From assembly GCA_000442015.1 (NCBI GenBank), contig KE561117.1:186001-217887 (forward strand): a DNA stretch of 31,887 nt, in the 5' to 3' direction. The translations under genes and the position numbers were made by a program. The notes beneath the pieces are model-generated. The model was not told the origin of the DNA and did not search any database. It worked only from the letters and a program-made list of their open reading frames with translations. Of this stretch, positions 2,479-25,209 are shown one piece after another. The stretch is from Rozella allomycis CSF55 (Eukaryota). Position 1 is the first letter of the stretch; every line of letters begins with the position of its first letter.

Positions 2479-3009
2479 TTATTTTTCATTTTTTGATATA
2501 AAAGGCGGAAACATGGTCAACTTTACATTAATCCCTTCTCTGGATATTCTTCTTTCGCATGACATGATATAGAAATCTCTAAGATCGTGAGCATCAACAT
2601 CATCCATCGATTTTGGCATTTTGTTCCAATCAATATTCGCTCTTTCCAATGTAGCTATAATACCTCCAATTCCTACTTTATACATTTTCGAATCTTCGGA
2701 TAATAATCTGCCTTTGATATTGTCACCAGGTTTCAATCCAAGTAGAAATCGAACAGTTTCATTCTGTCTTACTTGTTTGTTCACATTTTCAAATGGTGTA
2801 TATCTGAATTCTGTATCGATATTTCCTGTAAGAATAACGTGGTTCTGGGCCAATTCATCAATTGGCAATTCTCGTTTGAGCCCGAAATTTTTGCCTTCAA
2901 ACATGGCGTTTCTAGAGTTCCTAATCAGCAAATTCTTATCTTTAACATAATTACAAACAAAGGCCGAACGACTGAATAACTGGCGAAAGGATTGATATCT
3001 TTTGTCCAT
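2479..3009 (-). CDS. Hypothetical 176-aa protein, intronless orphan
   Basis: ATG-initiated ORF filling the space up to the ADK stop; no recognisable domain. Its C-terminus weakly resembles the repeat unit of the neighbouring ORF. Confidence 0.6.
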   Translation of the reverse strand: MDKRYQSFRQLFSRSAFVCNYVKDKNLLIRNSRNAMFEGKNFGLKRELPIDELAQNHVILTGNIDTEFRYTPFENVNKQVRQNETVRFLLGLKPGDNIKGRLLSEDSKMYKVGIGGIIATLERANIDWNKMPKSMDDVDAHDLRDFYIMSCERRISREGINVKLTMFPPFISKNEK

Positions 3010-3128
3010 TACAATTTTGAATTTTCGTTATCCATTAATTCGGGTTGCAAGCATCAAATTATCAAATAATAACATAGTAAAAACATCAAAAAATAGACCA
3101 TTTATTGGACCAATTTGCCAATTCTCTC

Positions 3129-3938
3129 CTAGAGAGCTTGGATTTTTTTTCTTAAAAGACTTAGATCTATCGTTTCCTGTGCAACAATTGGCCTCTCCTT
3201 TTTAACACCATTTTTATAATTATCGCTGACGCTTGGATCAGCCAGGTCTTTATCCATCTTTTTAAGATGCCAACTATTGTATTCTATTCTCTTTGTCATC
3301 TCCTCTAAGTATGGCTTAATATCGTCTGCTTTAAGTCTTAAAGTAAGAGCGGAATTGTAAACGTTTCGGGCCCTTTCAACATTCCCCTCGTAATCGTGCT
3401 TGTCCAAAGGTTTGGATTCCCTCTCAATAAAATTCTTGTATTCGTTTCTCAAATCCGCTTGATCTTTGGGTGTTAGCTCATTGAAAGATTTTGCCATGTA
3501 TCTATTCTTAATAGTTGTCATAACGTCACCCTTTCTTCTATAACTGGGAATCAAATCCAATTTTGCATAATCAGTTGGTAAACGTTTAAGCTTGTTTTGA
3601 GTGTCGTATAATTTAAGCAATGTGTGCAGGACATACTCGCGCTGTGCTTTATACTCGGTCGCCAGTCTTCGAAACTCAAAATCTGACATACCCTTCAATT
3701 TCCTAGGTTCGGGAGGGTACATTTTCAAATGATCTCTTTTGTCAATAATTGTTTGAATTTGATCAATTATAGGCTGAACATCTGATTTTATCATTCTCAA
3801 TTTGCGGGCTGATGAATAGATATTTGCAATTTCTTCCACTTTTCCAACACTAATTTCATCAATTTTGTAATTATTTAAAAACTTCTTATAATCACGGAAA
3901 ACCTCAATTTTGTCATCAGGACTTAACCGGTCAGGGGA
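3129..3938 (-). CDS. C-terminal part of an orphan helical protein with an internal 150-aa repeat; 5' end lost at the N join
   Basis: 810 nt of open frame from N3939 to the TAG at 3129. Two alignable units: LSPDD..YKKFL..GKVE..NIYSSARKLR..DVQP..HLKM and LTPKD..YKNFI..GNVE..NVYNSALTLR..DIKP..HLKKM. Confidence 0.7.
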   Translation of the reverse strand, partial: SPDRLSPDDKIEVFRDYKKFLNNYKIDEISVGKVEEIANIYSSARKLRMIKSDVQPIIDQIQTIIDKRDHLKMYPPEPRKLKGMSDFEFRRLATEYKAQREYVLHTLLKLYDTQNKLKRLPTDYAKLDLIPSYRRKGDVMTTIKNRYMAKSFNELTPKDQADLRNEYKNFIERESKPLDKHDYEGNVERARNVYNSALTLRLKADDIKPYLEEMTKRIEYNSWHLKKMDKDLADPSVSDNYKNGVKKERPIVAQETIDLSLLRKKIQAL

Positions 3939-3939
3939 N

Positions 3940-4085
3940 CGTAATTCCAAGGGTTCAATATTGTCTGCAATTCTCTCGATAATTTCAACTGGTAAGTCAA
4001 AGAGACTCAAAGAGCAGGACCAGGAAAGCCAAACGGAGATCATAAGGAGCAACTCAATGCACTTGTTGGATGTCAACATTTCCAT
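3940..4085 (-). CDS. Signal peptide + F-box-like protein, copy 1 (N-terminus only, cut by the N join)
   Basis: MLTSNKCIELLLMISVWLSWSCS (basic n-region, hydrophobic core, S-x-S) followed by LSLFDLPVEIIERIADNIEPLEL. Close nucleotide paralogue of 7517-7717. Confidence 0.65.
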
Positions 4086-4507
4086 CGTTTGCGGTGGCTT
4101 GTAACGATTATTTCGTAGATTTCCTAAGTTGATGGACCCTCATTAAAACATGATTGGAATTTTGTAATTAACATGGAAATCTTCCGTAAGATGCTCATGG
4201 TCCCATGGATTAAAACCACCTCGGACCCATCAATTTATTGTGTATGATGATTAAATTCTTAGAAAATCAACCCATGGAAAAGATTAAGAGATGTCAGGAG
4301 CCTCCTATTCAATACTGAATAATTAATGGCTTTATTTCACTCGTGACTCGGATCTAGAAATGGATCCCTAAATTCCAAAAAGCAAAAAATTGCCATTAGG
4401 CAAGTACCGTAAACCATGCATAAATAAGGGCGGCCCAATGTGAAGTTTTGAACTGTCAATTAAGCCTATATCGATAGTCTACTTAGTTTCGTAATTGTAT
4501 AAACATA

Positions 4508-5100
4508 TTTTTTTTAGAAAAAAACGATTTATTTGCTTTATACAAGGCGACGAAGGATCATAACCGCTGTAATCTTGTTCGCTACAAAAGATATTTTCGT
4601 GATGAAACGATTAAGTATTATTTTTCCCTCAACACCTTCAACTAAATAGACAGGCAGTTCATCCGGTTTTTCGTAAAAACTTCAACAAGATATTGTCAAT
4701 TCCACCAGTCTCCATACAAAATGGTTCAAAAAAGAGGCATTGTGATTGACAAAGGTTCATATATTTCTTCATTTTCAAATCTCTAGAGTTTTCGGCTGCA
4801 GCCAAAGGATTAATAGATGCATTTTCTAACATTGAACTGGCAGAGGGTGACATTCATTCAAAGGCGCATATTATTATTATATCCTTTGTCTGCATGTGCA
4901 CACCATTCACCCGATTCCAGGAGGTAGTTTTATCTGCAGTGATGTCAACTGATAGTTGAAAGATATTAAAATAAAAAGGACAAGGAAGACAAGAAAAAGG
5001 ACATCAGAAGTATTTGCCTATATTTGCCTATTTGGATTCTTCGGCGGAAGGTTCATTACAGTAAGGGACGGTTTCATGATGCTCCGTCTCTGCTTTAACC
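4508..5100 (-). mobile_element. Decayed 3' end of an RLE-type (CRE/NeSL-like) non-LTR retrotransposon
   Basis: SPSASS..AAAENSRDLKMKKY..L....FEPFCMETGG matches the restriction-like endonuclease region. After a frameshift it reads ...ILNRFITKISFVANKITAVMILRRLV* (stop 4538-4540), then AATAAA (4528-4533) and an A8 tract (4508-4515). The 5' boundary is approximate. Confidence 0.7.
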
Positions 5101-5342
5101 CTTGTAAGACAGGGGCAATTTAATAAATTTCCTGGTTATTTTAAGAAATTTGTCTTTGCTTTCTAGCGGACCAAAATCACCTCCGCTACAAAGCGGGATA
5201 CAAGGCTCAGTGTTTCATTATTGACATTTGACACTGACAGGAAGAATTTATTAATCGTGATAGTTGATTGTATCAGGACGAAATATGCATTTATCCGGGC
5301 AGCCCGATCCAATTTTTTTGAATATTAAAAATTAAAGCGATT

Positions 5343-6958
5343 TTATTCGTTTTTTGGCATGTTTTTTAATTTACTCATTAAAAACTGATAGAATGAAATG
5401 AATGCCCCGATAGCGCATGAAGCTTGAAAAGTTTCCAAACTGGCAGATCCGAAATAAGAGGTTAAAGCATTATTTGATTTAGCGATGCCAATAAAGTATT
5501 TGGTTACGTGGAATATTACCATGCTAGCCTTTTCCTTTTCTACGTTAAAAAGAATGGACAAGAAGAGTGGAAGAATGTTCAACCAAATCAGCCAAGGGAG
5601 AATACGATTGAACTCGAGCAACATAAAAAGTTCATACGCCTGTATCATTACCGTTATAGCAATGGCATTCAAATAATTCGATTGAAATGATTTTAGCTGC
5701 CTTTTCACTTTTTCGATTCTTGTTTCTGTTTCTAACGTATCAATGTCACAATCATCCGGATGATTATTTTTGTCTTCAATTAAAGACTCCATTTTATTAT
5801 CCTCCTGCTCACATATTTCAGCGCACTTTGAAACACCAGACTCTTTATTTACCTTATCAGTTTCTTTTATGAATTTAGAACAATTATTTCTTTCATTTAA
5901 AGGATCAGTTTTTAGTCTGCGATAAATCTCACGCAACTTACTTGCGACATTGTGTATGGAAGCCAGCTCGCTATCAGATCTTGAAATGATGTGTTCCGCT
6001 GTGTTTATTAATGACTTAATGGTCTTATCCATGCAAAACTGCTGCTTTTCAAGTGCCACATTAAATTCCGGTAATCTGAAAACATGTTTCCACAACGTAA
6101 AATATGCTTCATTCTTGAGCCTTAGAGTTAGATCCAAAAAAACTTCAATCAAATAGTGTTTCAAATAGAACGCTGCTATCAGAAGGAAACTCTCTTTGTG
6201 TTTCAATTCACAAAACATGGAGCATTTCAAAACACCTTCTTCAATGTCTTTTTTAAGATCGATTGAACCATTATTGGGGCTTTTTACAAATAAGAAATGT
6301 TTCAGAGTTTTAGGACTTGTAGCACAAAATTCCGATAGATTAAATCCATAACCTGCGTCTGCAAACAAAATGCAATGACTAAATATTTCCGGCCTGTCAT
6401 AATGAAAAGCGTATTGTGGTATAAGAACACCATTGATAATTCTGCGAACAAAGTCATTGTCTTTGTCTTCGATAATTTCAATATTTTTCCAAGGGACATT
6501 TTGATCCACACAGCTTTTGAATCTTGCAATATCAGATAATGACGGAATTCCATGTTCAACATCTTCATAGTCTGAAAATGCGTGACAAAATGGATCTGGC
6601 TTGTATTTTCCAGCTAACAATTTTGCTTCGTGAAAGAAAAGAGCATCTAAAAAAAGTCTGTTTATAAAACGCTCACCAATAGCCCCAAAAAGTATATTAT
6701 CTGCGTCGTATTTCAAGATATATTCTATTAAATTGCCTTCCGAGAAAATAAATATGTCAGCGACAATTTCAAAGACAGTTGCGCTATTCGCCTTAAATAT
6801 TGATTTTAACATGTCCATTTTGAACGAATCTTTGATATACGTTACTATTTTTTGGAAGGCGGCATCAGGATTATCAACCAATTCGTCAAATTCTTCTTTG
6901 TTGTCCAAAAGTTTGGGAAGGATACTGTATTCTAGAATTTCCTTGACATGTGTGCTTC
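5343..6958 (-). CDS. Large intronless orphan protein with C-terminal hydrophobic helices; 5' end lost at the N join
   Basis: About 1.6 kb of uninterrupted frame: helical body, acidic linker, then hydrophobic segments (YLNAIAITVMIQAYELFMLL, ILPWLIWLNILPLFLSILF, AIGAFISFYQFLM). Confidence 0.75.
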
Positions 6959-6959
6959 N

Positions 6960-7377
6960 GCGCCTCTCCATGAGCACTTCGCAAAGCATTAGGTGCTTGT
7001 TGTCGAGTTGCATGTTCATAGATAGGCGGCGATCTACGATCTATGGTTGTGTATCTAGGAAGTGTGTCACCTTGTCTTTGTACTTGTTGTCGGGTAGCCT
7101 GTTCATAGGAAGGTAGTGATCCTTGGTCTTGGGCTCTGGAAGTGTACCTGGAAGAGGCAGAACGATGGCGTCCTTGTTGGCCTTGTCTTGAGGGGTTTGA
7201 AGACCGAGTGTTACTTCCTGATGAAGTATTCTTCTTTTTTCCTTTGAAAAAGTTCTTGAACGATTTCCAAGGTGATATTCGAGACCGATTGATTGCTTGA
7301 GAATTGACCGTTCCAGCGGGGGAAGTTGCTATCAATGATAGAAATAGAGGTAAAAGTAATGTCGAAAGTAGTTTCAT
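6960..7377 (-). CDS. Secreted disordered Q/R/S-rich protein with three PY (L/PPxY) motifs; 3' end lost at the N join
   Basis: Classic signal peptide MKLLSTLLLPLFLSLIATSP, basic patch KGKKK, and LPSY (88-91), LPRY (106-109), PPIY (117-120). Confidence 0.75.
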
Positions 7378-7390
7378 GACGACCCCTTAN

Positions 7391-7655
7391 AATTATTGAT
7401 TTTCCATTTCAGTTCGATCAAAGGCACAGATCGCTCAAAATATTTTATTAAGGAGGGTAATATCGCATCCTTCTGATACCAAGCATGTGCCGTTTTGCAT
7501 GAACAAACCATTTGCTGTAATTCCAAGGGTTCAATATTGTCTGTAATTCTCTCGATAATCTCAACTGGTAAATCAAAGAGACTCAAAGAGCAGGACCATG
7601 CAAACCAAACGGAGATCATAAGGAACAACTCAATACACTTGTTAGATGTAAACAT
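7391..7655 (-). CDS. Signal peptide + F-box-like protein, copy 2 (N-terminus only, cut by the N join)
   Basis: MFTSNKCIELFLMISVWFAWSCS followed by LSLFDLPVEIIERITDNIEPLELQQMVCSCKTAHAW, fitting the F-box consensus L.dLP.Ei...I...L....l......CK...W. Confidence 0.7.
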
Positions 7656-7729
7656 TTGCAACGTTTCTTCGGTGGCTTGTGACGGATTTTTCGTAGATTT
7701 CCTAAGTTGAAGGACCCCATCATAAGATT

Positions 7730-8354
7730 ATCGGACGGGGAGTTTACGACCCGGACTTCAGAAACGATTATTGGCATGTTGAGTTAACACCATTTTCACC
7801 TCGAATACACACTCACTTTAAGGGATTTACATCGCTGACCAGGGGGGTTGTCGAGTGGTGTGTGTGTGTGTGTATGTGTAGGTGGCGGAAGTTTTGGAAG
7901 GTGCATGTTGGATTGCTCATTAATATGGCACATTTGTGTCTATTTATAAAAAAATTAAATTGAAATAATAAATTGTTGTTTTATTTTCTTTATTAGCGTC
8001 TTAGAGCCATAAGATTTCCTTGTTACACTTAGTTTTGAGTCCCCCTAACCCCTTGGAGTAGCAAATCTTTAAAAGTATCCAATCGATTAAACAATTATAT
8101 TAATTGAAAGATAAAATTTATAGACATTTATTTATTAGAACAAGATAAAGGGATTTGGGATTCGCGGGAGGAAAACGGTAAATGAAGGTCATGAGCGATG
8201 GAAGAAAGCGGTAAAATGAAATACATCTCTACTTAATTTTAGAAGAAATCACAATTTCCATGGCATCTTCAAACTAATGTCAAAAAATGATAATGATAGC
8301 AAACAGTTGTTTTGTGCGAGAAATTTATTCTTAATTATAAACTCCCCGTCCGAT
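7730..8354. mobile_element. Non-autonomous DNA transposon (MITE-like), 625 bp with perfect 17-bp terminal inverted repeats
   Basis: ATCGGACGGGGAGTTTA (7730-7746) is the exact reverse complement of TAAACTCCCCGTCCGAT (8338-8354). No internal ORF is listed. A second copy of the left end sits at 31851-31887. Confidence 0.85.
7858..7880. repeat. (GT)n microsatellite inside the TIR element
   Basis: gtgtgtgtgtgtgtgtatgtgta read directly. Confidence 0.85.
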
Positions 8355-10637: not shown

Positions 10638-12424
10638 ATGAATTTGGAAAATGTCGCAGACTCTTTAAAGAATGGTAAACAATAACAACTTCGAAGTATT
10701 TAGAAAGCATAAGAAAAGGATTTCAATTACATTATCCTGATCTATTGTCTTTGTTGCAAACTAATCTCCACCTGGTGGCGTTTGATGAAAACGAATTAGT
10801 AAACACATTGAGGTGTGTTGCAAATGTCTGCTTTGAAAATAGTGACACCTATCGAATTTTGTTATATAGACGAAAATAGACAATATTTTAATAATGTATC
10901 AGCTGATATACTGCGCATACTCGATTTAGCAATGGACAATAAATTGAGCAGTCGTCTTTTTAAATTTATATACGGCGCCATAGTAAATCACACTATGGAT
11001 AACGGTAACAATTGTTATTAGATTTTGATTAGAAATCAGTCTGAATGGATATGTGCATGGCAATGTCGTGGAGAAGATTCTCGAAGCGTGTGTTACAAGA
11101 ATCAAAAACACTGAAGATGTCTTCATATTAATTCAATTGATTCAATACTTTGTTGAAAGTTCTGAATTTGCAGTCAAGAGAATTAAATGTACTGACTTGA
11201 TGGCGAATATACTGCGTATACTTGTTGCACACCAGAATAATGATGAAATTTTGGATGAAATACATAGTATAGTTATGATTTCCTTGACGGGAGGTAAAAT
11301 TTTATGTATTATGCAATGGAAGATTTGAAAGTCATTGATTTTTCTCAAAGTAACTTGGCAATAAAACTAGAAAGTATAAACTTTCAAAATGAAACCGTGT
11401 GCGAAATAATATCGTATTTTACAATGATTGGTAATCTATTATTTCNGGCAGTCAAGAGAATTAAATGTACTGACACGATGGCAAATTTATTACGTATACT
11501 TGTAGCACACCAGAATAATGATGAAATTTTGGATGAAATACATAGTATAGTTATGATTTCCTTGACGGGTGGTAATATTTTATGTATTATACAATGGAAG
11601 ATTTGAAAGGCATTGATTTTTCTCAAAGTAACTTGGCAATTAAACTAGAAAGTATAAACATTCAAAATGAAATCGTGTGCGAAATAATATCGTATTTTAC
11701 AATGATTGGTAATCTATTATTTCTCACTTTAATTGGATTCTTTTGCTTCTTTGTTGTTTCCAGATCAAATTTTAAGAATTTTGGACACTATTGACTCAAA
11801 TGAAACTCTAACATCGATTCATTACGTTATTTTGACGAATACAATTAGAAATGCAGAGATAGCTTCATTTATTTATAACAATGGAAAGTTACAGACTTCT
11901 CTGTTGAATGCTATGAAAACTACAAGTTCTAATACAAAGCTAAAGTACAACGCACTTGGCCTGCTACGAAACATTTCTATCTCTGGTAAATTTTAACTTT
12001 ATTTATAATTAGAAAAGAGACAAGTGATCAAGAATCCTGAATTAATGGATTGCTTGATTGAATTTTATGATGAAGTTCGGGAGAGGGGGATAGTTGATGG
12101 TCTATTAGGGCAAATTCTATTGCTATTAGTCTCCTTGAGTTCTGATTCAGGTAAACTAAATTAAATGAAGTTATAGAATGCCTTGTGGTATTAAAGGAGA
12201 GATTCGTGTCGCAAGTCAGAATAGCAGGTATTCTTGAACATTGTTCAAAAGAAGACCAAGGAGTATCCAAAATAGCGGCCAGACTAGCCATAAAACTATA
12301 TCCAATCCTTGACGAAAAATTTCAACTGTCCGTTGTTGAGTTGTGCAAAGAATTGATAAAAGGGGAATCCAACCAGGTTATAAAAGAGGAAGCTATTAAT
12401 ATTTTGAAGGGCGCAGAAAAATAA
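10638..12424 (+). CDS. Armadillo-repeat protein, SmgGDS/RAP1GDS1 (Bem4/darlin)-like, multi-exon; a false internal duplication spans N11446
   Basis: Exon motifs DENRQYF, YGAIVNHTMDN and KYNALGLLRNISIS resemble SmgGDS ARM repeats; several short GT-AG introns. Not all junctions were resolved. Confidence 0.6.
11170..11723 (+). repeat. Tandem near-identical 276-bp duplication flanking an N (probably two alleles)
   Basis: 11170-11445 repeats at 11448-11723 (period 278) with scattered substitutions, joined at N11446. Confidence 0.9.
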
Positions 12425-12518: not shown

Positions 12519-15474
12519 ATGCAAGAAAAGGACAAGTCGTATGACTATTGTCCACCTTTTGCTAACGGCAATAGGTTTAACCAAAGCTATTCAAACAAGA
12601 ACGAGTATTCTGGACGGCCTTATAGTGGAGGGTATAACTCTAGCGGCGGAGGACAGGGTCAAAGTGGGTATTATGATAGTGATACTGCGCGTTCTAAATA
12701 TTCTAGTGAATATTACAGAAGAGATAGCCGGCCGTACCCCGTGCAGAGGTATGATAAGGGGTATTCACGTGGGTATGAGGACGGATACGCAAGAGATTAT
12801 CGTGGTCATAAGAGTGAAGAGAGTTCAGGCTATGATTATGGAAAGAGGCAGCCGTATTATGAAGATGGATACAAGTACCAGAGCAGGCCACGGCCATACT
12901 ATCCTAGCGAGAGGATTAGCGATAGACCGAATGAGAGGGGCTATTATGATTATACCAAGAAGTATAAATATGATGAGCGATACAAGTATGATAATAGGTT
13001 TGAAGATAAAAGCGAAAGGTAAACACTAAATATTTTTTGAAATGTAGGAAATCTGTGGAGCCATATTATAAGCCGTATGATAGAGGATACGAGAAGCCGT
13101 ATTATGAAAGGTCATACGATAAACCATATGATAAGCCATATGAAAGACCGTATGAAAAGCAATATGATAAGCCATATGCAAGATCATTTGAAAATACATA
13201 TGACAGTGGTGAAAAGCCGTTTGTTAAAAAGTATAAATATGATAATTTCAAGAGCTACGAATATAAGAATGATGACAGGGGGATAAATTATTATAAGAAA
13301 CCATATTATAAAGAAAAGAGTTATGAGAATTATGAAAAACCTGCCTATAGATATGAAAATGATGAAAGAGAGTATGATGAAAGAGATGAAGAACAGTATC
13401 AAGGGGACAATGAAAAGATGAATGATGATAATGGAATAAAGGAGGAGTCTAAAATGGAAGAAGGCGAGTGTTTATCGTCAGAACCAAAAGATGATGATTT
13501 AAAAGAAGATTTGAAAGACGATATGAAAGAAGATTTGAAAGAGCAAGAGGAAAGGATGGAAGTAAATTTTGATAAAGGGAAAGAAAAAGAAGAAGAAGAA
13601 AGTATTGGTAAGAGCGGAGAGAAGATTGAAATTGTCGACAAGGAAAAGATTCAAAGTTCAGAAGAGATATTGAAGAGGATGGATGAAATTGATGTGCAGG
13701 TTTGTGAGTTGGAAAAGAGAATACAAATATTGAAAGGGGAAATGAATGATTTTGATTCAAATTTTTTGGTTGAAAGTATTTTGAATTCAAATAAGAAAAT
13801 ATCTAAAAGTATAAAAGAAGAAAATGAGAAAGAGTTCCCAACGTTGATAAATTTTGAAGAATATTCGCAGCCTGTAATTGAGAAATTTCAGAATCAAACT
13901 AAAGATCTTTTGATGAGAGTTATAAAGCGAAGAAAGCAACAAACATTTGAACTGAAGAAACAATTGAAAGTGAAATATAAAAATATTCAAAATGAATTTC
14001 AATCTAAACTTTTAGAAAATTCTAGTTTGTTTAATACTTCATATGATAAACTTATGGGAATTAAAAATGGATTTATTCATTCAAAGATTAAAGTTGATAA
14101 TTTTATATCACAGAATCAATCTTCTAAAGATATTCAATTAATGTTTGTTAGAACAATTGCTAAAATACCAAACATGTTATTAGATGGATGTGAAAAAGCT
14201 TTCCCCTTTATATCTGAAAATGGACTTGTTTCTGATCCAATGAATGTTTATCAACAATCTAAATATATAAACCCCTGGTCTGATGATGAAAAAGATAAAT
14301 TTGTTTCTGCGTTTCTTGAGTATCCTAAAAACTTTTCTAAAATTGCATCTTTCATTGAAAATAAATCTTCATCTGATTGTGTTAAATTTTATTATCTCAA
14401 TAAAAAATCTTTGGATCTGAAAAAATTATCAAAAAAGAAATTTCGTAAGATTGGACCAGGGTCTTCAAGAGAATTAAAAGATTTAACTTTGGCTAATCTA
14501 CATTGGGAGCAAAGAGAACATCGAGAAAAATCAAAAGAAAAAGAAATAAAAACTCCAATTAAATCAAATTCCAAAGAAATAAATACCAAAGATACTCCAA
14601 GTGAACCAAGTACACCAATAGAGAATAATACAAACACAGCATCTAGATGGACTGTAATGGAAAAAGTTAAAGCGATTGAAGGAATTCGATTTCATGGGAA
14701 AAATTTTCAAAAGATATCTGAATACGTTGGAACTAAAACTGAACAACAATGTAGATCTTTTTATCAAAATTACAAAAAGAAATTAGATTTAGATACAATA
14801 ATTAAAAACAATGAAAAAATTATTCCAAAAGTTGAAACTCCTTCTGACTTATCTTTTGAAAAAGTAAATGAAAGAAAACAAATCCCTTCAACTTCAATTC
14901 CAAGGCCTTTGACTCAAACTTCTTTTGTTCCTTCGTCTGCTTCTTATCTTCAACAACCTTTGGGCTATCCAATGCCTTTTCTTTATTATCCAAACTCTTT
15001 TCAATTTAGATTCCCTCCAATGAGACCCCCTTTCTTTGAATCAAACTTTAATCGTCCTATTCAACAACAAACAAGAAGACACAGGTAATGTAAATGTAGT
15101 TTAAATATTCTAGTATTACTTCAGATATTGTTTCAAATTCATTCAACAAAGAAAGAAGATCTAGCGGTGGCTCCATCGATCATTCCAGAATTCTTGATGA
15201 TTCAAAATTACAACTTAAAGACGATAAAGTGAAATTAAAACTTCAAGATGAATTTAAAAAGGAAGAAACAGTTTTAACTCACAATGATTCAAAGTTACAG
15301 TTAATAGATCAACAACCCATGGTATCATTAGACCCTCATAATGCCATTGACACAAATATCAACAATCAGTCAGAAACTTTTATCCCTCAAGAACAATCAA
15401 CTGTACCAGAAAATATTCAAACATCTGAAACATCTGATGAAACAAGCAAGAATGATGAAACTCAAAATTTATAA
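12519..15474 (+). CDS. Dual SANT-domain corepressor protein (Snt1/NCoR-like), 3 exons
   Basis: SANT1 PWSDDEKDKFVSAFLEYPKNFSKIASFIENKSSSDCVKFYYLNKK and SANT2 SRWTVMEK..HGKNFQKISEYVGTKTEQQCRSFY. Preceded by AKIPNML..ENGLVSDP and a coiled coil EEILKRMDEIDVQVCELE. Introns at 13019-13047 and 15085-15113. Confidence 0.88.
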
Positions 15475-20832: not shown

Positions 20833-23800
20833 TTAATCTGCCCTGAAAATATTCAACAAGACGTCTTCGAGAGAACTTCTTCCTAATGAAAAATCCAAAA
20901 TGACGTTCTTTTCCTTCAAAGACATAAAGCGATCGACGATGACACCTAGGGGCAAGGAGAAAGACAATGAAACTTTTGCATATCCATTAATAATTTGCTG
21001 CAAAGAATATGAAGCTTTTAAATCGCCACGTAAAACGTATTCCAAAATGGGATCTAGTATTTTCTCATTACAGTTTGATAGTTGCAAAGTGGCAATGTAG
21101 CCATCGGCCATTGAGATTGATAATTCATGTTCAGTACCACAACTCTTAAGAGTTCCTTTGGTCATGACACCTATGCGATCGCAATTTGATGTTTCGCTGA
21201 TGTAGTGAGTTGTCATTACAGTTGTTCTTTCTTGACCTAGAGCACGGACAGTCTTCCACATTTTGGATCTGGCTAAAGGATCTAAACCGGCAGAAGATTC
21301 ATCAAGCATGACAAGGGACTTTGGTAACATAATGGCAATGATGGTGCTAACTTTTCTTTTTGTGCCGCCACTCAATTGACCACATTTGTAATACTTGAAG
21401 TTTAAGATGCCCATGGATTCCAATAACGTGTCAATGTAGTCACATGCTTCTTTATTTGTATAACCGTTCATGTATAAAAACAAGTACAAATGATCATAAA
21501 TTGACATTGAAGGAATTAGAAGTAAATCAAACTGAGGACAGACACCCATCATATTGATAGCTTTGAACTTATTAGCTGTAACGTCTATGCCATCGACATG
21601 AATAGCACCTGCAGTGGGAACCAACCTTGATGTTAACATGTTTAGTGTAGTTGTCTTTCCACAACCATTGGGACCCAACAGAGCAAAAAATTCATTCTTT
21701 TTAATTTCAAGATTTAAATTTTTAACGACCTTTCTTTTTCCAAACCTTTTTGAAACACCGCTGAATTTAGCGCAAATTTTATGATCAATTAATCTCAACT
21801 TTGAATTTCTATAAAAGACGTGTTTGAATTCAACAATCAAAATAAAATACAACAGACAACCACAGACTATGTAATTTATCATATCACTCCCTTGTATTAA
21901 ATATTTATCATCATTAACCAAAACCATGGGTGATGTTAATGGAAATTTACTCATAACTAACGTTACCAATTTATAAATCTTTGGATCGATAACTTTTGTC
22001 ATTGTTAAAGCCATTAATCCCATCCAACAAAAGAATCCCAAGTTTCTCGCCAGTGAAAGTATTAGGTTGGCCCCTGATTCATTCATAACAATTCCCAAGA
22101 AAAATGAAAGAACAAACGCTAAAACAAAGAAAGATATTAAATAAGAAGAAATATCGTAAGCTATTTTTGAAACAGATATGAAATAAGCAGGGAGAACAAC
22201 AGGGAGCATTAATATTGCTGTCATTATTATATGAACAAACCAAAACGAAACAAATGAGACACCACAAGAAAGCAACAGAAATTGATACTTAATTTTAGCT
22301 TCTTTAACTCTTCTTCCAAAGTACGCGATCAATTCACTAAACAATTGAAGAATGAAATATGGAACAGCTCCATCAAACAATGAACCTAAAATTTCAAGAG
22401 GAGACTCATTTTTAGAATACAAGATTATATTATTTGTAGATCCCTTTATTCCTTTGGACTCTAACAAACTTTCAACGATATAGAATTGTGCAAGTGCCAT
22501 ACCAGGCTGCACACTAACTGAATATGTATTACCTGCTTTATAAAGTCCTCCAAACTTATTTTCTTGTTTCTTTTCTTCGTATGGGATAAACATTGGATAA
22601 TGCAATAAGGATTCAACGTTTGTTTCATATCTAGATCCATGCCAAATCATAGCATTGTACAGATCTTTTCCAAGCGTGTAATTTGCTTTGACTGTAAATT
22701 CATTCTGCAATTTTGCATTCGCGATACTTGGTTTAGGCAAGTTCGAAATAGCCACAATTAAAAGTAAAGTTGGCAGTAATCCTCCTACGTATTCATAAAC
22801 ATGTGTGACAAATCGATACAATTCAAATTTTAAAAGAAGCCATGTTGTTTTAAAGAAATTATTTTTTCTGCAACTTTTGATATGTTCACCCAACAGCCCT
22901 TCAATATTCTTATCTTCGCCATTAGATTTATTGTTTGAAAAAATGTAATCCAATCCATTTTCTTTTATAATAAAAGATTTTATCATTGGTTTAAGTTCTT
23001 CTTCTTGTTCGAATTCTGATATGCTTTCTAAAATCCCTTCTTCAAAAATAAACTCTACGAAATTTCCACTCTCTTTGCATTTATATCCCACTGCCCCCTT
23101 GTTAAAAAACCAAGCTAAAAATGACTCTTCATCAAAATCATCTGTTTTCTCAATTGACAATGAATACCCAGTTCGAAATAGATTCTTCAAATATCTTGAA
23201 GTTCCAATACACGTCACTTTTCCTTGAGTCATCATAGCTTTTCTATCACATATTATATCAGCTTCATCCATAAAATGTGTGCACATAAGAATTGATCTCC
23301 CTTGCTTTCTTTTTTGCAAAAAATTCCAAATCACTCTTCTATTATCAGGATCAACTCCACTAGACATTTCATCCAAAACAACCAATTCAGGATTGCTCAC
23401 AAAAGCAATTGCTATGCAAAGTTTTCTTTTTTGACCACCTGACAGATGCTGTGCAAATTTATCCAACATATCGCCCATTCTCAAATCTTCAACTATCCCT
23501 TCAATAATATCTTTCAGCTCACTATTCTTCACGCCTCTAATTTTACCGAAATAATATAAATGTTCTCCAACAGTAAGATCTTGGAAAAGAATATCTTGCT
23601 GCTGGCAAATCCCAATTCGCTGTGATATTGCTCCTCGATTTTTACTCTTTGAAGAATCAACCCCGAAAACTTTTATATGCCCAGCTGTAGGAGAAAGAAT
23701 CCCAGTAATAATATTAATTAGTGTACTTTTCCCAGCACCGTTAAATCCTATCAGTCCAAATATTTCATTTTTCGCAAACTCTAAACTCACATCATTCAAA

Positions 23801-25209
23801 GCTTTAATCTTGGCACCAGGATAAATCTTTGTCACATTTTTCACAGAAACTTTGTCCTCTAATGGAACAGATGATATTTCACTTTTCTCCTCATGTACAT
23901 TTACTTCCTCCTTTTCAACTTTGCTGATACTTGAAAACAATGCAAGAATTGGATAATAGAAAGGTCTTTTATGGTCCTGACTAACATCCAGCCAATCGAA
24001 ATAAAATGCAATAATATAATAGGCGAAAGTAATCAGCATGCTTACAAAATAGATGTTATAAAGAGATGGATACCCATTTGGAATAGATAACTTTGATAAA
24101 CCTGTGCTTTCCAAAGGAGTAACTTCAAGAACCTTTAAATAATATTTAAATCCAAAAGCTGGTATCATACATGCTACATATATATACTCAACAGACAAAT
24201 CAAAAGGACTTGCAACAATCAAACCAAACCAACTGACAGATAAAATGAATGAAAGAAACCCTGATTTTCTTGGACTTGTTGTTGCATTAGCTATCAATAA
24301 AAAGACTCCAAGCGTAGAGAAGATAGTGTTCAATGCGAAAAGTACAAGAGGCAAAAGTTCACATTTCAATCGAGCATACATTATAGCAACTCCAACACCC
24401 ATGTAAATTGAGCAAAGAATAAACGGAATAAGAAAAATAGATAAAGTATACGCAGATTTGTTAAGCCCTGATCGCAGTAAGGTGAATTTCATGCCATTTG
24501 ATCGATATTGTCTCATTGTGTCAAGGAGGATGCTTCCTATTGAAGTAAATGAAATCGGATAAAGCCACATATCGGCAAAACTAAAAGATAAAACTGAACC
24601 GGTGAATGATGTGGCAAAGTTTGGATCGCCCATGTTGGTCGCAAACGACGGAGGCTGGTCATTTTCTTTATCATTTAAAAGCCCAGTATCCCAAAAGTAC
24701 TTGATCTTTGCGGCAGCCAGATATGAAGAAGTAACAAATTTGCTTCCAAAAGAATCATCAAATTTTCCACTTTTAATAAGATCTACATTGGTTTTCACAA
24801 CACCTTGCGGCATGATTATATCATAAGATAGAAGTTTTTCGTCTCTACTATACGAAGTTATGTTAATGAAAAATGAAGTATCGCTTTCTCTTAATCTTTT
24901 AAATTCGTTGGATGATTTTTGAGAGTAACCAAACTTGCTAGCAAATTTATCAACAAATGCTTTGTCGCTTGCCACCAAGTTACCAAAGGAATAATCATAG
25001 AAAATATTAAATTTTAAAGTTTTGAAATTCAGATCTGGTGGTTGGGCACTCAGTTTCATTTTTTCGAGAAGACTTTCATCAGTAAACACAAAAGCTAAAG
25101 CTCCCATTATAAACATAGAGAAAATAGCCCCCCAAAACGAAAAGCTTCTTCTCTTGAGGAGAAACTGCAACCTAAAGAACGTGTAGGTTTGAAATAGAAA
25201 CGAAAACAT
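20833..25209 (-). CDS. ABCA-subfamily full-length ABC transporter (TMD-NBD x2), intronless
   Basis: 1458-aa ORF with Walker A GFNGAGKST and GPNGCGKTT, signatures LSGGQKRKL and LSGGTKRKV, and ABCA-typical THFMDEADIICDR and GVCPQFD. Confidence 0.93.
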   Translation of the reverse strand: MFSFLFQTYTFFRLQFLLKRRSFSFWGAIFSMFIMGALAFVFTDESLLEKMKLSAQPPDLNFKTLKFNIFYDYSFGNLVASDKAFVDKFASKFGYSQKSSNEFKRLRESDTSFFINITSYSRDEKLLSYDIIMPQGVVKTNVDLIKSGKFDDSFGSKFVTSSYLAAAKIKYFWDTGLLNDKENDQPPSFATNMGDPNFATSFTGSVLSFSFADMWLYPISFTSIGSILLDTMRQYRSNGMKFTLLRSGLNKSAYTLSIFLIPFILCSIYMGVGVAIMYARLKCELLPLVLFALNTIFSTLGVFLLIANATTSPRKSGFLSFILSVSWFGLIVASPFDLSVEYIYVACMIPAFGFKYYLKVLEVTPLESTGLSKLSIPNGYPSLYNIYFVSMLITFAYYIIAFYFDWLDVSQDHKRPFYYPILALFSSISKVEKEEVNVHEEKSEISSVPLEDKVSVKNVTKIYPGAKIKALNDVSLEFAKNEIFGLIGFNGAGKSTLINIITGILSPTAGHIKVFGVDSSKSKNRGAISQRIGICQQQDILFQDLTVGEHLYYFGKIRGVKNSELKDIIEGIVEDLRMGDMLDKFAQHLSGGQKRKLCIAIAFVSNPELVVLDEMSSGVDPDNRRVIWNFLQKRKQGRSILMCTHFMDEADIICDRKAMMTQGKVTCIGTSRYLKNLFRTGYSLSIEKTDDFDEESFLAWFFNKGAVGYKCKESGNFVEFIFEEGILESISEFEQEEELKPMIKSFIIKENGLDYIFSNNKSNGEDKNIEGLLGEHIKSCRKNNFFKTTWLLLKFELYRFVTHVYEYVGGLLPTLLLIVAISNLPKPSIANAKLQNEFTVKANYTLGKDLYNAMIWHGSRYETNVESLLHYPMFIPYEEKKQENKFGGLYKAGNTYSVSVQPGMALAQFYIVESLLESKGIKGSTNNIILYSKNESPLEILGSLFDGAVPYFILQLFSELIAYFGRRVKEAKIKYQFLLLSCGVSFVSFWFVHIIMTAILMLPVVLPAYFISVSKIAYDISSYLISFFVLAFVLSFFLGIVMNESGANLILSLARNLGFFCWMGLMALTMTKVIDPKIYKLVTLVMSKFPLTSPMVLVNDDKYLIQGSDMINYIVCGCLLYFILIVEFKHVFYRNSKLRLIDHKICAKFSGVSKRFGKRKVVKNLNLEIKKNEFFALLGPNGCGKTTTLNMLTSRLVPTAGAIHVDGIDVTANKFKAINMMGVCPQFDLLLIPSMSIYDHLYLFLYMNGYTNKEACDYIDTLLESMGILNFKYYKCGQLSGGTKRKVSTIIAIMLPKSLVMLDESSAGLDPLARSKMWKTVRALGQERTTVMTTHYISETSNCDRIGVMTKGTLKSCGTEHELSISMADGYIATLQLSNCNEKILDPILEYVLRGDLKASYSLQQIINGYAKVSLSFSLPLGVIVDRFMSLKEKNVILDFSLGRSSLEDVLLNIFRAD

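Follow-up and report, generated by a model that had tools for sequence, protein, structure and literature searches.

Two mis-scaffolded tandem paralogues in Rozella allomycis CSF55 and their possible product, a membrane-tethered protein with an F-box-like motif

In the genome assembly of Rozella allomycis CSF55, two related gene starts on the minus strand of contig KE561117.1 are the 5' ends of two tandem paralogues, with gene B upstream and gene A downstream, around which the scaffold has been joined in the wrong order. The window, that is, the whole stretch of DNA that was analysed, comprises 31,887 nucleotides (positions 186,001 to 217,887 of the contig), and the correction of its assembly order and of the public annotation constitutes the firmest result of this study. 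For the protein itself, the explanation favoured here, albeit tentatively, is that of a membrane-tethered SCF substrate receptor in the parasite's own cytosol. The first-pass annotation had proposed a classically secreted protein, in which a signal peptide is fused directly to an F-box, from an expanded multicopy family; this interpretation is partly supported.

The minus strand holds both 5' ends, each with a conserved leader:
7391..7655, minus strand: copy B, first 88 codons, with the start codon at 7653-7655, cut off by the N at 7390
7656..7717, minus strand: about 60 nt of conserved non-coding sequence, the leader or a promoter-proximal part of copy B, about 90% identical to 4086-4139
3940..4085, minus strand: opening 48 codons of copy A (MEM...PLEL); protein P0003 starts with the same residues
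4086..4139, minus strand: conserved non-coding leader of copy A, repeated in the copy B leader

The repeat that unites the two copies consists of the segments 3941-4090 and 7517-7666 (92% identity) and the segments 4092-4139 and 7670-7717 (90% identity), giving a common stretch of about 200 nt at 90-92% that takes in the coding start and about 55-60 nt 5' of the ATG. Such length and identity are far beyond chance, and the earlier description of a diverged second copy that keeps the coding start and about 55 nt of upstream sequence is thereby borne out. The open reading frame of copy B (7655 to 7391) encodes MFTSNKCIELFLMISVWFAWSCSLSLFDLPVEIIERITDNIEPLELQQMVCSCKTAHAW..., its start reading MFTSNKCIELFLMISVWFAWSCS and then LSLFDLPVEIIERITDNIEPLELQQMVCSCKTAHAW... 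exactly as originally quoted, while that of copy A (4085 to 3940) reads MEMLTSNKCIELLLMISVWLSWSCSLSLFDLPVEIIERIADNIEPLEL, 48 residues that are nearly identical to the start of copy B. A 2-nt indel 5' of the ATG sets the two upstream stretches in different frames, and in-frame stops are located 22-24 codons upstream of the ATG in both copies; because of this frame-breaking indel and these stops, the conserved ATG is considered the true start and the upstream part non-coding. An upstream-extended start, as in the model of protein P0002, is excluded for the window copies on the same grounds. Over the first 46 codons, the copies differ at four codons synonymously and at five non-synonymously, the amino-acid changes being three L/F and one S/A in the hydrophobic run and one A/T in the F-box-like stretch, and on this count the start of the module appears to be under purifying selection.

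At 7676-8000, next to the gene B leader on its upstream side, lie a dispersed repeat of very high copy number and a microsatellite; the summed contig depth here reaches about 1.3-1.5e5 vs about 223 in unique parts; many loose contig ends fall within 7728-7998, and a (GT)n tract occupies 7849-7891.

Four single Ns are present in the window, at 3939, 6959, 7390 and 11446. Each 5' end stops at one of them, copy A at 3939 and copy B at 7390, in agreement with the earlier remark that both copies break the assembly soon after their shared part, and the A/B repeat is the cause of these breaks. The features involved are as follows:
7390: single-N scaffold join; gene B lacks about 102 nt (34 codons), which are concealed by this join and the one at 6959
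6960..7389, minus strand: misplaced 430-nt contig, foreign to gene B, which carries the ATG at 7377 (MKLLSTLLLPLF...) of the gene continuing at 3938
6959: single-N scaffold join, upstream edge of the gene B body
5343..6956, minus strand: gene B body, 537 codons plus stop, an all-helical orphan domain to which protein P0005 is 100% identical
3939: single-N scaffold join, where the A/B homology ends and which the O9G_000871 model reads across, with CGN as Arg
3129..3938, minus strand: unrelated open reading frame, wrongly fused to copy A in the gene model at the contig join

When contigs of four public runs were placed on window positions 3000-8000, one 1776-nt contig of run X1 was found to follow 3151-3938, then 101 other letters, and then 6960-7389, and contigs of run X2, which overhang 3938 by 83 nt and 6960 by 48 nt, agree with this bridge. 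The reading frame is preserved across it, since the 418 nt from the ATG at 7377 to 6960 and the 101 nt together make 519 nt, or 173 codons, after which the open frame at 3938 begins with its first codon. Because these contigs join 3938 to 6960 via 101 nt, the 430 nt of 6960-7389 are misplaced inside gene B and represent the start of the gene running from 3938 to 2479; for the same reason, the differing tail of copy A (3938 to 3129) belongs to another gene. The open reading frame at 3129-3938 exhibits no similarity to the module family (best BLASTP E 1.2), and O9G_000871 (P0004), in which the N at 3939 is read as Arg, is therefore a chimera of an A-type start and an unrelated protein. The likely order on the minus strand is the gene B start to 7391, about 102 missing nt, and 6956 to 3940 (gene B body, intergenic stretch and gene A start), followed by the missing body of gene A, 7389 to 6960, the 101 nt, and 3938 onward. 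The remainder of gene A is absent from the window. Judging solely by scaffold neighbourhood, the N-terminal piece 7655-7391 presumably belongs to the body at 6956-5343 rather than to another paralogue. The chimeric O9G_000871 model and the wrong local scaffold order will mislead surveys of domain architecture and of the secretome in this reference genome.

Several further observations concern the repaired gene and its surroundings. The true N-terminus of O9G_000871 is carried by the 6960-7389 contig (minus strand), joined in frame via 101 nt to the open reading frame at 3938, and the parts of this gene with a Mrp51-like C-terminus are 6960-7389, 3129-3938 and 2479-3009, all on the minus strand. 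Its start on the misplaced 430-nt contig, MKLLSTLLLPLFLSLIATSP..., is itself signal-peptide-like, and the S/R/Q-rich stretch that comes next contains a repeated YE.ATRQQ motif; the annotated C-terminal part of O9G_000871 yields a sub-threshold match to Mrp51 (E 1.3e-05 to 1.6e-05, 25 bits vs a cut-off of 27.1). On either side of the N at 11446 lies a direct copy of a 276-nt sequence (11170-11445 and 11448-11723, 95% identity). The stretch 11170-11723 probably reflects a contig overlap that was left unmerged, or a tandem repeat that was collapsed; these duplicate flanks are another sign that the single-N joins of the scaffold are unreliable. A second element, repeated to a moderate degree, is located at 5004-5192, in the intergenic stretch that separates the stop of gene B from the start of gene A; its summed depth is about 20 times the baseline, with loose ends at 5064, 5137-5139 and 5192. 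Elsewhere in the window, an intron-free open reading frame of 1458 aa (20833-25209, minus strand) with two ABC_tran domains (E 1.7e-57) and an ABC-2 membrane domain encodes a full-size ABC transporter, and a 556-aa Myb-domain protein (E 8.6e-23) is encoded at 13418-15088 on the plus strand. The strong purine skew at 13001-14000 (GC skew 0.48, AT skew 0.30) suggests a low-complexity coding stretch.

Relatives of the module were sought with the 87-aa N-terminus of copy B in a word-index search (20 candidates), in which three proteins, all from Rozella allomycis CSF55, were matched:
P0002: 157 aa, partial; N-terminus 94% identical to B
P0003: 543 aa, partial; A-type, equal to window copy A over the common 48 aa
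P0004 (O9G_000871): 461 aa; named 'F-box domain-containing protein' by one source

A phmmer search with P0003 against 1,835,955,588 representatives returned three at E<=0.001 (P0003 itself, P0005 and P0002), and a search with the 537-aa body returned two proteins among 7491 candidates (P0005 at 100% identity, and P0003); for proteins of 47-153 aa, the search for relatives gave no candidate. All related proteins in these protein-collection searches come from Rozella, and because exhaustive and word-index searches return so few, the module family is considered an orphan and small. The description as a multicopy family stands in so far as more than one copy exists, the distinct N-terminal variants found so far being three, namely window A (equal to P0003), window B and P0002. 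That the family is expanded is contradicted by the recovery of three sequences among 1.84 billion.

The organization of the complete protein is revealed by P0003, in which the A-type module runs unbroken via a 34-residue linker into a body that is homologous to the window open reading frame 6956 to 5343 (63% identity over 423 aa). The 34-codon linker hidden at 7390/6959 is carried after the module by both P0002 and P0003, and the loose end of run X2 past 6958, read by hand on the minus strand, gives LVMNQNILD and the first base of an Arg codon, matching the P0003 linker LVINQNILDR just ahead of STHVKEIL. Because P0003 joins the module to a homologous body, the paralogues share one architecture and their differing tails are unreal, which removes the basis for the earlier view of a conserved N-terminal module with variable C-termini. 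What does vary is the interior of the body: identity between A and B is 85-93% over P0003 residues 1-150, 32-54% over residues 211-390 and 76-90% over residues 391-540, and the hypervariable centre corresponds to about 6162-6698 in gene B. This mosaic identity with a variable centre would fit the pattern of a substrate receptor. The gene B body also contains an acidic, Cys-containing stretch; no Pfam family matched it (best Spectrin_7 at E 0.24), and in the ESM Atlas an ankyrin-like neighbour leads at 0.81, a low recognition to be taken as a lead only.

It was also considered whether the two copies might be alleles of one gene, a pure assembly artefact or a dead duplicate. The scaffold is demonstrably mis-ordered here and its single-N joins are unreliable, which speaks for an artefact; nevertheless, the A and B bodies are only 63% identical and differ by indels, on which grounds alleles were rejected, and the earlier designation of the copies as diverged paralogues holds. 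Against alleles, too, P0003 (A-type) and P0005 (identical to the B body) both bear ROZALSC1 single-cell-assembly names, and both variants occur next to each other among contigs of the public runs, 5728-6014 being covered in run X5 by records with 0 differences as well as by records with 8-11. Long open frames of 537 and 543 codons are kept, and this whole group of explanations is regarded as very improbable. The summed contig depth over the conserved segments is 2-4 times the baseline of about 223, a figure that is not a copy number; it would fit 3-4 copies, although it is not relied on. Nothing from RNA run X13 was placed on this stretch of the window, which counts neither for nor against expression. 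The ploidy of Rozella is not mentioned in the accessible part of PMC9457484, and no description of the module family was found in the literature on Rozella allomycis and F-box proteins.

The identity of the conserved module as an F-box was assessed at the levels of sequence profile, language model and structure. In copy B, Pfam PF00646 matches residues 26-57 (7485-7580) along profile positions 1-32 of 43, with E 0.012 and 15.9 bits over the 87 aa; it is the sole Pfam match at E<=1 on this N-terminus and begins exactly at LFDLPVEII. The F-box claim is thus upheld in that PF00646 is matched at the proposed motif, and it falls short in that 15.9 bits lie below 20.5, the curated cut-off. For P0003, the values are E 0.051 and 14.0 bits against the same cut-off, and P0002, P0004 and the 48-aa A fragment give no PF00646 match at E<=1, so that two of the five module-bearing sequences match at E<=1 and none of the five exceeds the curated cut-off. 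The L-P-x-E-I/L signature and the hydrophobic pattern are present (LFDLPVEIIERITDNIEPLELQQMVCSCKTAHAW on profile positions 1-32, with the last 11 positions unmatched), and, as far as PLEL, all four copies in the alignment carry the motif unchanged.

Among the named neighbours that the ESM Atlas gives for P0003 residues 26-115, an F-box cluster ranks first, with a score of 0.92 and 142 features in common, and ten of the ten best family-bearing matches share the F-box family or clan, although a third of shuffled proteins also reach 10/10 agreement and 142 shared features is a low number. Among the Atlas structure rows, ten of ten clusters carry F-box families, at TM 0.43-0.65, all 'under the bar' and for a model with pLDDT 0.46. 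A profile search of PDB sequences recovered no F-box protein, the sole match being a designed protein at E 2.1. AlphaFold yielded no usable model, with mean pLDDT at 32.4 over 543 aa and at 48.0 over the 122 aa of residues 26-147, and Foldseek against the PDB with the low-confidence 122-aa model gave no match at E<=0.001 among 41 at E<=10; these low-pLDDT models and their Foldseek result weigh neither for nor against an F-box fold.

The F-box call is therefore plausible, yet below threshold. An alternative is that no working F-box exists and that a lineage-specific membrane protein, whose function has nothing to do with ubiquitination, has first soluble helices whose LPxEI motif resembles the start of the F-box profile by chance. 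The scores of 15.9 and 14.0 bits vs 20.5, the confinement of the match to profile positions 1-32 of 43, the lack of a match in P0002 or among PDB sequences, the lack of a confident fold and a body without family (Spectrin_7 at E 0.24, ankyrin-like at 0.81) are all in keeping with this alternative. Nevertheless, the F-box is the only family matched at this site, the language-model and Atlas-structure neighbours are uniformly F-box clusters, and the motif is N-terminal, ahead of a large variable domain, which is the usual layout of F-box proteins. A chance likeness is consequently regarded as rather unlikely, and the module is probably a true, divergent F-box, which in the explanation favoured here would be functional and bind Skp1.

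Studies of the hydrophobic segments bear on the location of the protein. In copy B, residues 10-27 (7575-7628) form an uncharged hydrophobic run of 18 residues, and the PF00646 match opens at residue 26, which confirms that the hydrophobic segment directly adjoins the F-box-like motif. By eye, an n/h/c layout can be discerned, with K6 in the n-region, an 11-residue core (LFLMISVWFAW), S-C-S at residues 22-24 with small residues at -3/-1, and then LSLF. One K precedes the segment, and the 15 residues after it hold one K/R vs four D/E (net -3). This N-terminal segment looks like a signal peptide or an N-in anchor, and an uncharged run of 18 residues is a borderline membrane span, long enough for an anchor. 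At the other end of the protein, two strong transmembrane helices are located at body residues 429-447 and 452-470 (5547-5672), with mean hydropathy over 19 residues of 1.71 and 2.15, respectively, and the 15 residues before the first of these helices include four K/R, from which a cytosolic location of the long body follows by the positive-inside rule. If the N-terminal segment is a signal peptide or N-in anchor, the F-box would therefore lie on the far side of the membrane, contradicting the cytosolic orientation; the N-terminal flanks would favour translocation and the flank of the C-terminal helices a cytosolic body, and the predicted orientation signals conflict. In either orientation, the two strong C-terminal helices make the product an integral membrane protein and no soluble secreted effector. 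The notion of classical secretion accordingly retains its signal-like n/h/c start, and the C-terminal helix pair reduces it to a protein that is at best membrane-displayed.

According to the favoured, tentative explanation, the F-box would face the cytosol. The predicted protein of about 660 aa would begin with the uncharged 18-residue segment, directly followed by the divergent F-box, then by an all-helical body (about 450 aa) with a centre that is hypervariable from one paralogue to the other, and last by the C-terminal transmembrane helix pair. The F-box would recruit Skp1-cullin, the variable helical body would pick substrates, and the hydrophobic segments would keep the SCF complex on an endomembrane or the plasma membrane. 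The architecture of the membrane-tethered adaptor derives its support from P0003, which links the module to the body, and from the X2 loose end at 6958, which enters the linker. The explanation is further supported by the PF00646 match and the F-box neighbours in the Atlas, the name given to P0004, the hydropathy of the C-terminal helices with the K/R ahead of them, the variable centre and the purifying selection at the start.

Membrane-associated cellular F-box proteins include the ER-bound FBXW7-beta isoform and the yeast proteins Mdm30 and Mfb1 on mitochondria. In these proteins, an SCF receptor resides on an organelle membrane with a cytosolic F-box, the mechanism favoured for Rozella; unlike the Rozella family, which is an orphan and anchored at both ends, they combine conservation across taxa with bodies of known type, such as WD40. 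Another comparison is offered by AnkB of Legionella, which combines an N-terminal F-box, a helical-repeat body and C-terminal membrane anchoring. It is a bacterial protein that a secretion system delivers by injection and that a lipid anchor holds on the host-facing side. The Rozella protein resembles AnkB in its N-terminal F-box-like motif, its helical body with weak ankyrin-like Atlas leads (0.81) and its C-terminal anchor, whereas the two show no sequence relation and Pfam detects no ankyrin repeat in the Rozella family.

A host-facing function represents a further alternative. In this case, the N-terminal segment would be a cleaved signal peptide, the F-box and the variable body would cross the membrane and be exposed at the exoplasmic surface of the unwalled plasmodium, where the C-terminal helices would retain them or cleavage would set them free, and the F-box would recruit the Skp1 of Allomyces, leading to ubiquitination of host proteins. 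The n/h/c layout with its 11-residue core, small -3/-1 residues and subsequent acidic stretch is compatible with such export, and the module family is species-specific and tandemly duplicated, with a hypervariable centre. On the other hand, the two strong C-terminal transmembrane helices are at odds with a soluble effector, the K/R cluster ahead of the first of them argues for a cytosolic body, the F-box itself is below threshold, and three family sequences do not amount to an expansion. Moreover, a surface-anchored F-box may not reach host Skp1; extra host membranes at the Rozella host-parasite interface are said to have been described by Powell et al. in 2017.

The biology of the parasite and its relatives lends some further weight to a host-facing function. 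Rozella is described as growing in its host as an unwalled plasmodium in the accessible part of PMC6317583, and in the portion of PMC5423893 available, lineage-specific, fast-evolving host-exposed families with a signal peptide or transmembrane segment are reported for microsporidia, the sister lineage. These are traits like those of the present family, and RING and LRR interaction domains occur in the microsporidian families; these families are large, compared with two to three members in Rozella, and the term 'F-box' is absent from the main text of PMC5423893.

Secreted eukaryotic F-box effectors, which the first-pass annotation had called unusual, are less so than implied, as judged from the available portions of PMC4617103 and PMC4746824. 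In the Hessian fly (Mayetiola destructor), the SSGP-71 proteins combine LRRs with an F-box at the N-terminus, and interaction with the Skp proteins of the host has been reported for them (PMC4617103); they share with the Rozella family a eukaryotic origin, an N-terminal F-box, a variable binding domain and a proposed export signal. In contrast to SSGP-71, the Rozella family has an orphan helical body and two C-terminal transmembrane helices, and comprises three known sequences. Measured against a soluble effector of this type, the B protein has hydrophobic C-terminal helices, and measured against an expanded multigene family, three of 1,835,955,588 representatives were found at E<=0.001. The second example, the Rhizophagus clarus effector candidate NLS_30765, carries an F-box-like PF12937 domain (Pfam 2.8e-07; PMC4746824); it is predicted to be secreted and, like the Rozella protein, is fungal and F-box-like, in both cases by prediction only. 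Unlike the Rozella protein, its Pfam match is significant, and no relation between the two was found in the phmmer search. In the accessible part of PMC4746824, 'Rozella allomycis' and 'F-box' occur unrelated to each other. What sets the Rozella family apart from the F-box proteins compared here is an orphan helical body, attachment to the membrane at both ends and a very small number of members.

On balance, a host-facing F-box mimic is considered unlikely. Its more specific form, in which a surface-displayed or shed mimic would act on the Skp1-cullin of Allomyces while its hypervariable centre is engaged in an arms race with host targets, is more doubtful still. If it were true, it would represent fungus-on-fungus hijacking of a ubiquitin ligase in the sister lineage of the microsporidia, by means of an adaptor that is membrane-anchored rather than injected.

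Rozella is an early-diverging obligate intracellular parasite with a reduced genome, living as an endoparasite of the water mould Allomyces. If the F-box is functional, the membrane-tethered protein favoured here would be an unusual SCF adaptor, in which a signal-like start abuts the F-box and an orphan helical body, hypervariable at its centre, is followed by a C-terminal transmembrane pair, and it would offer a tractable candidate for understanding in what way ubiquitination is used or subverted by Rozella and, by extension, by the forebears of the microsporidia.
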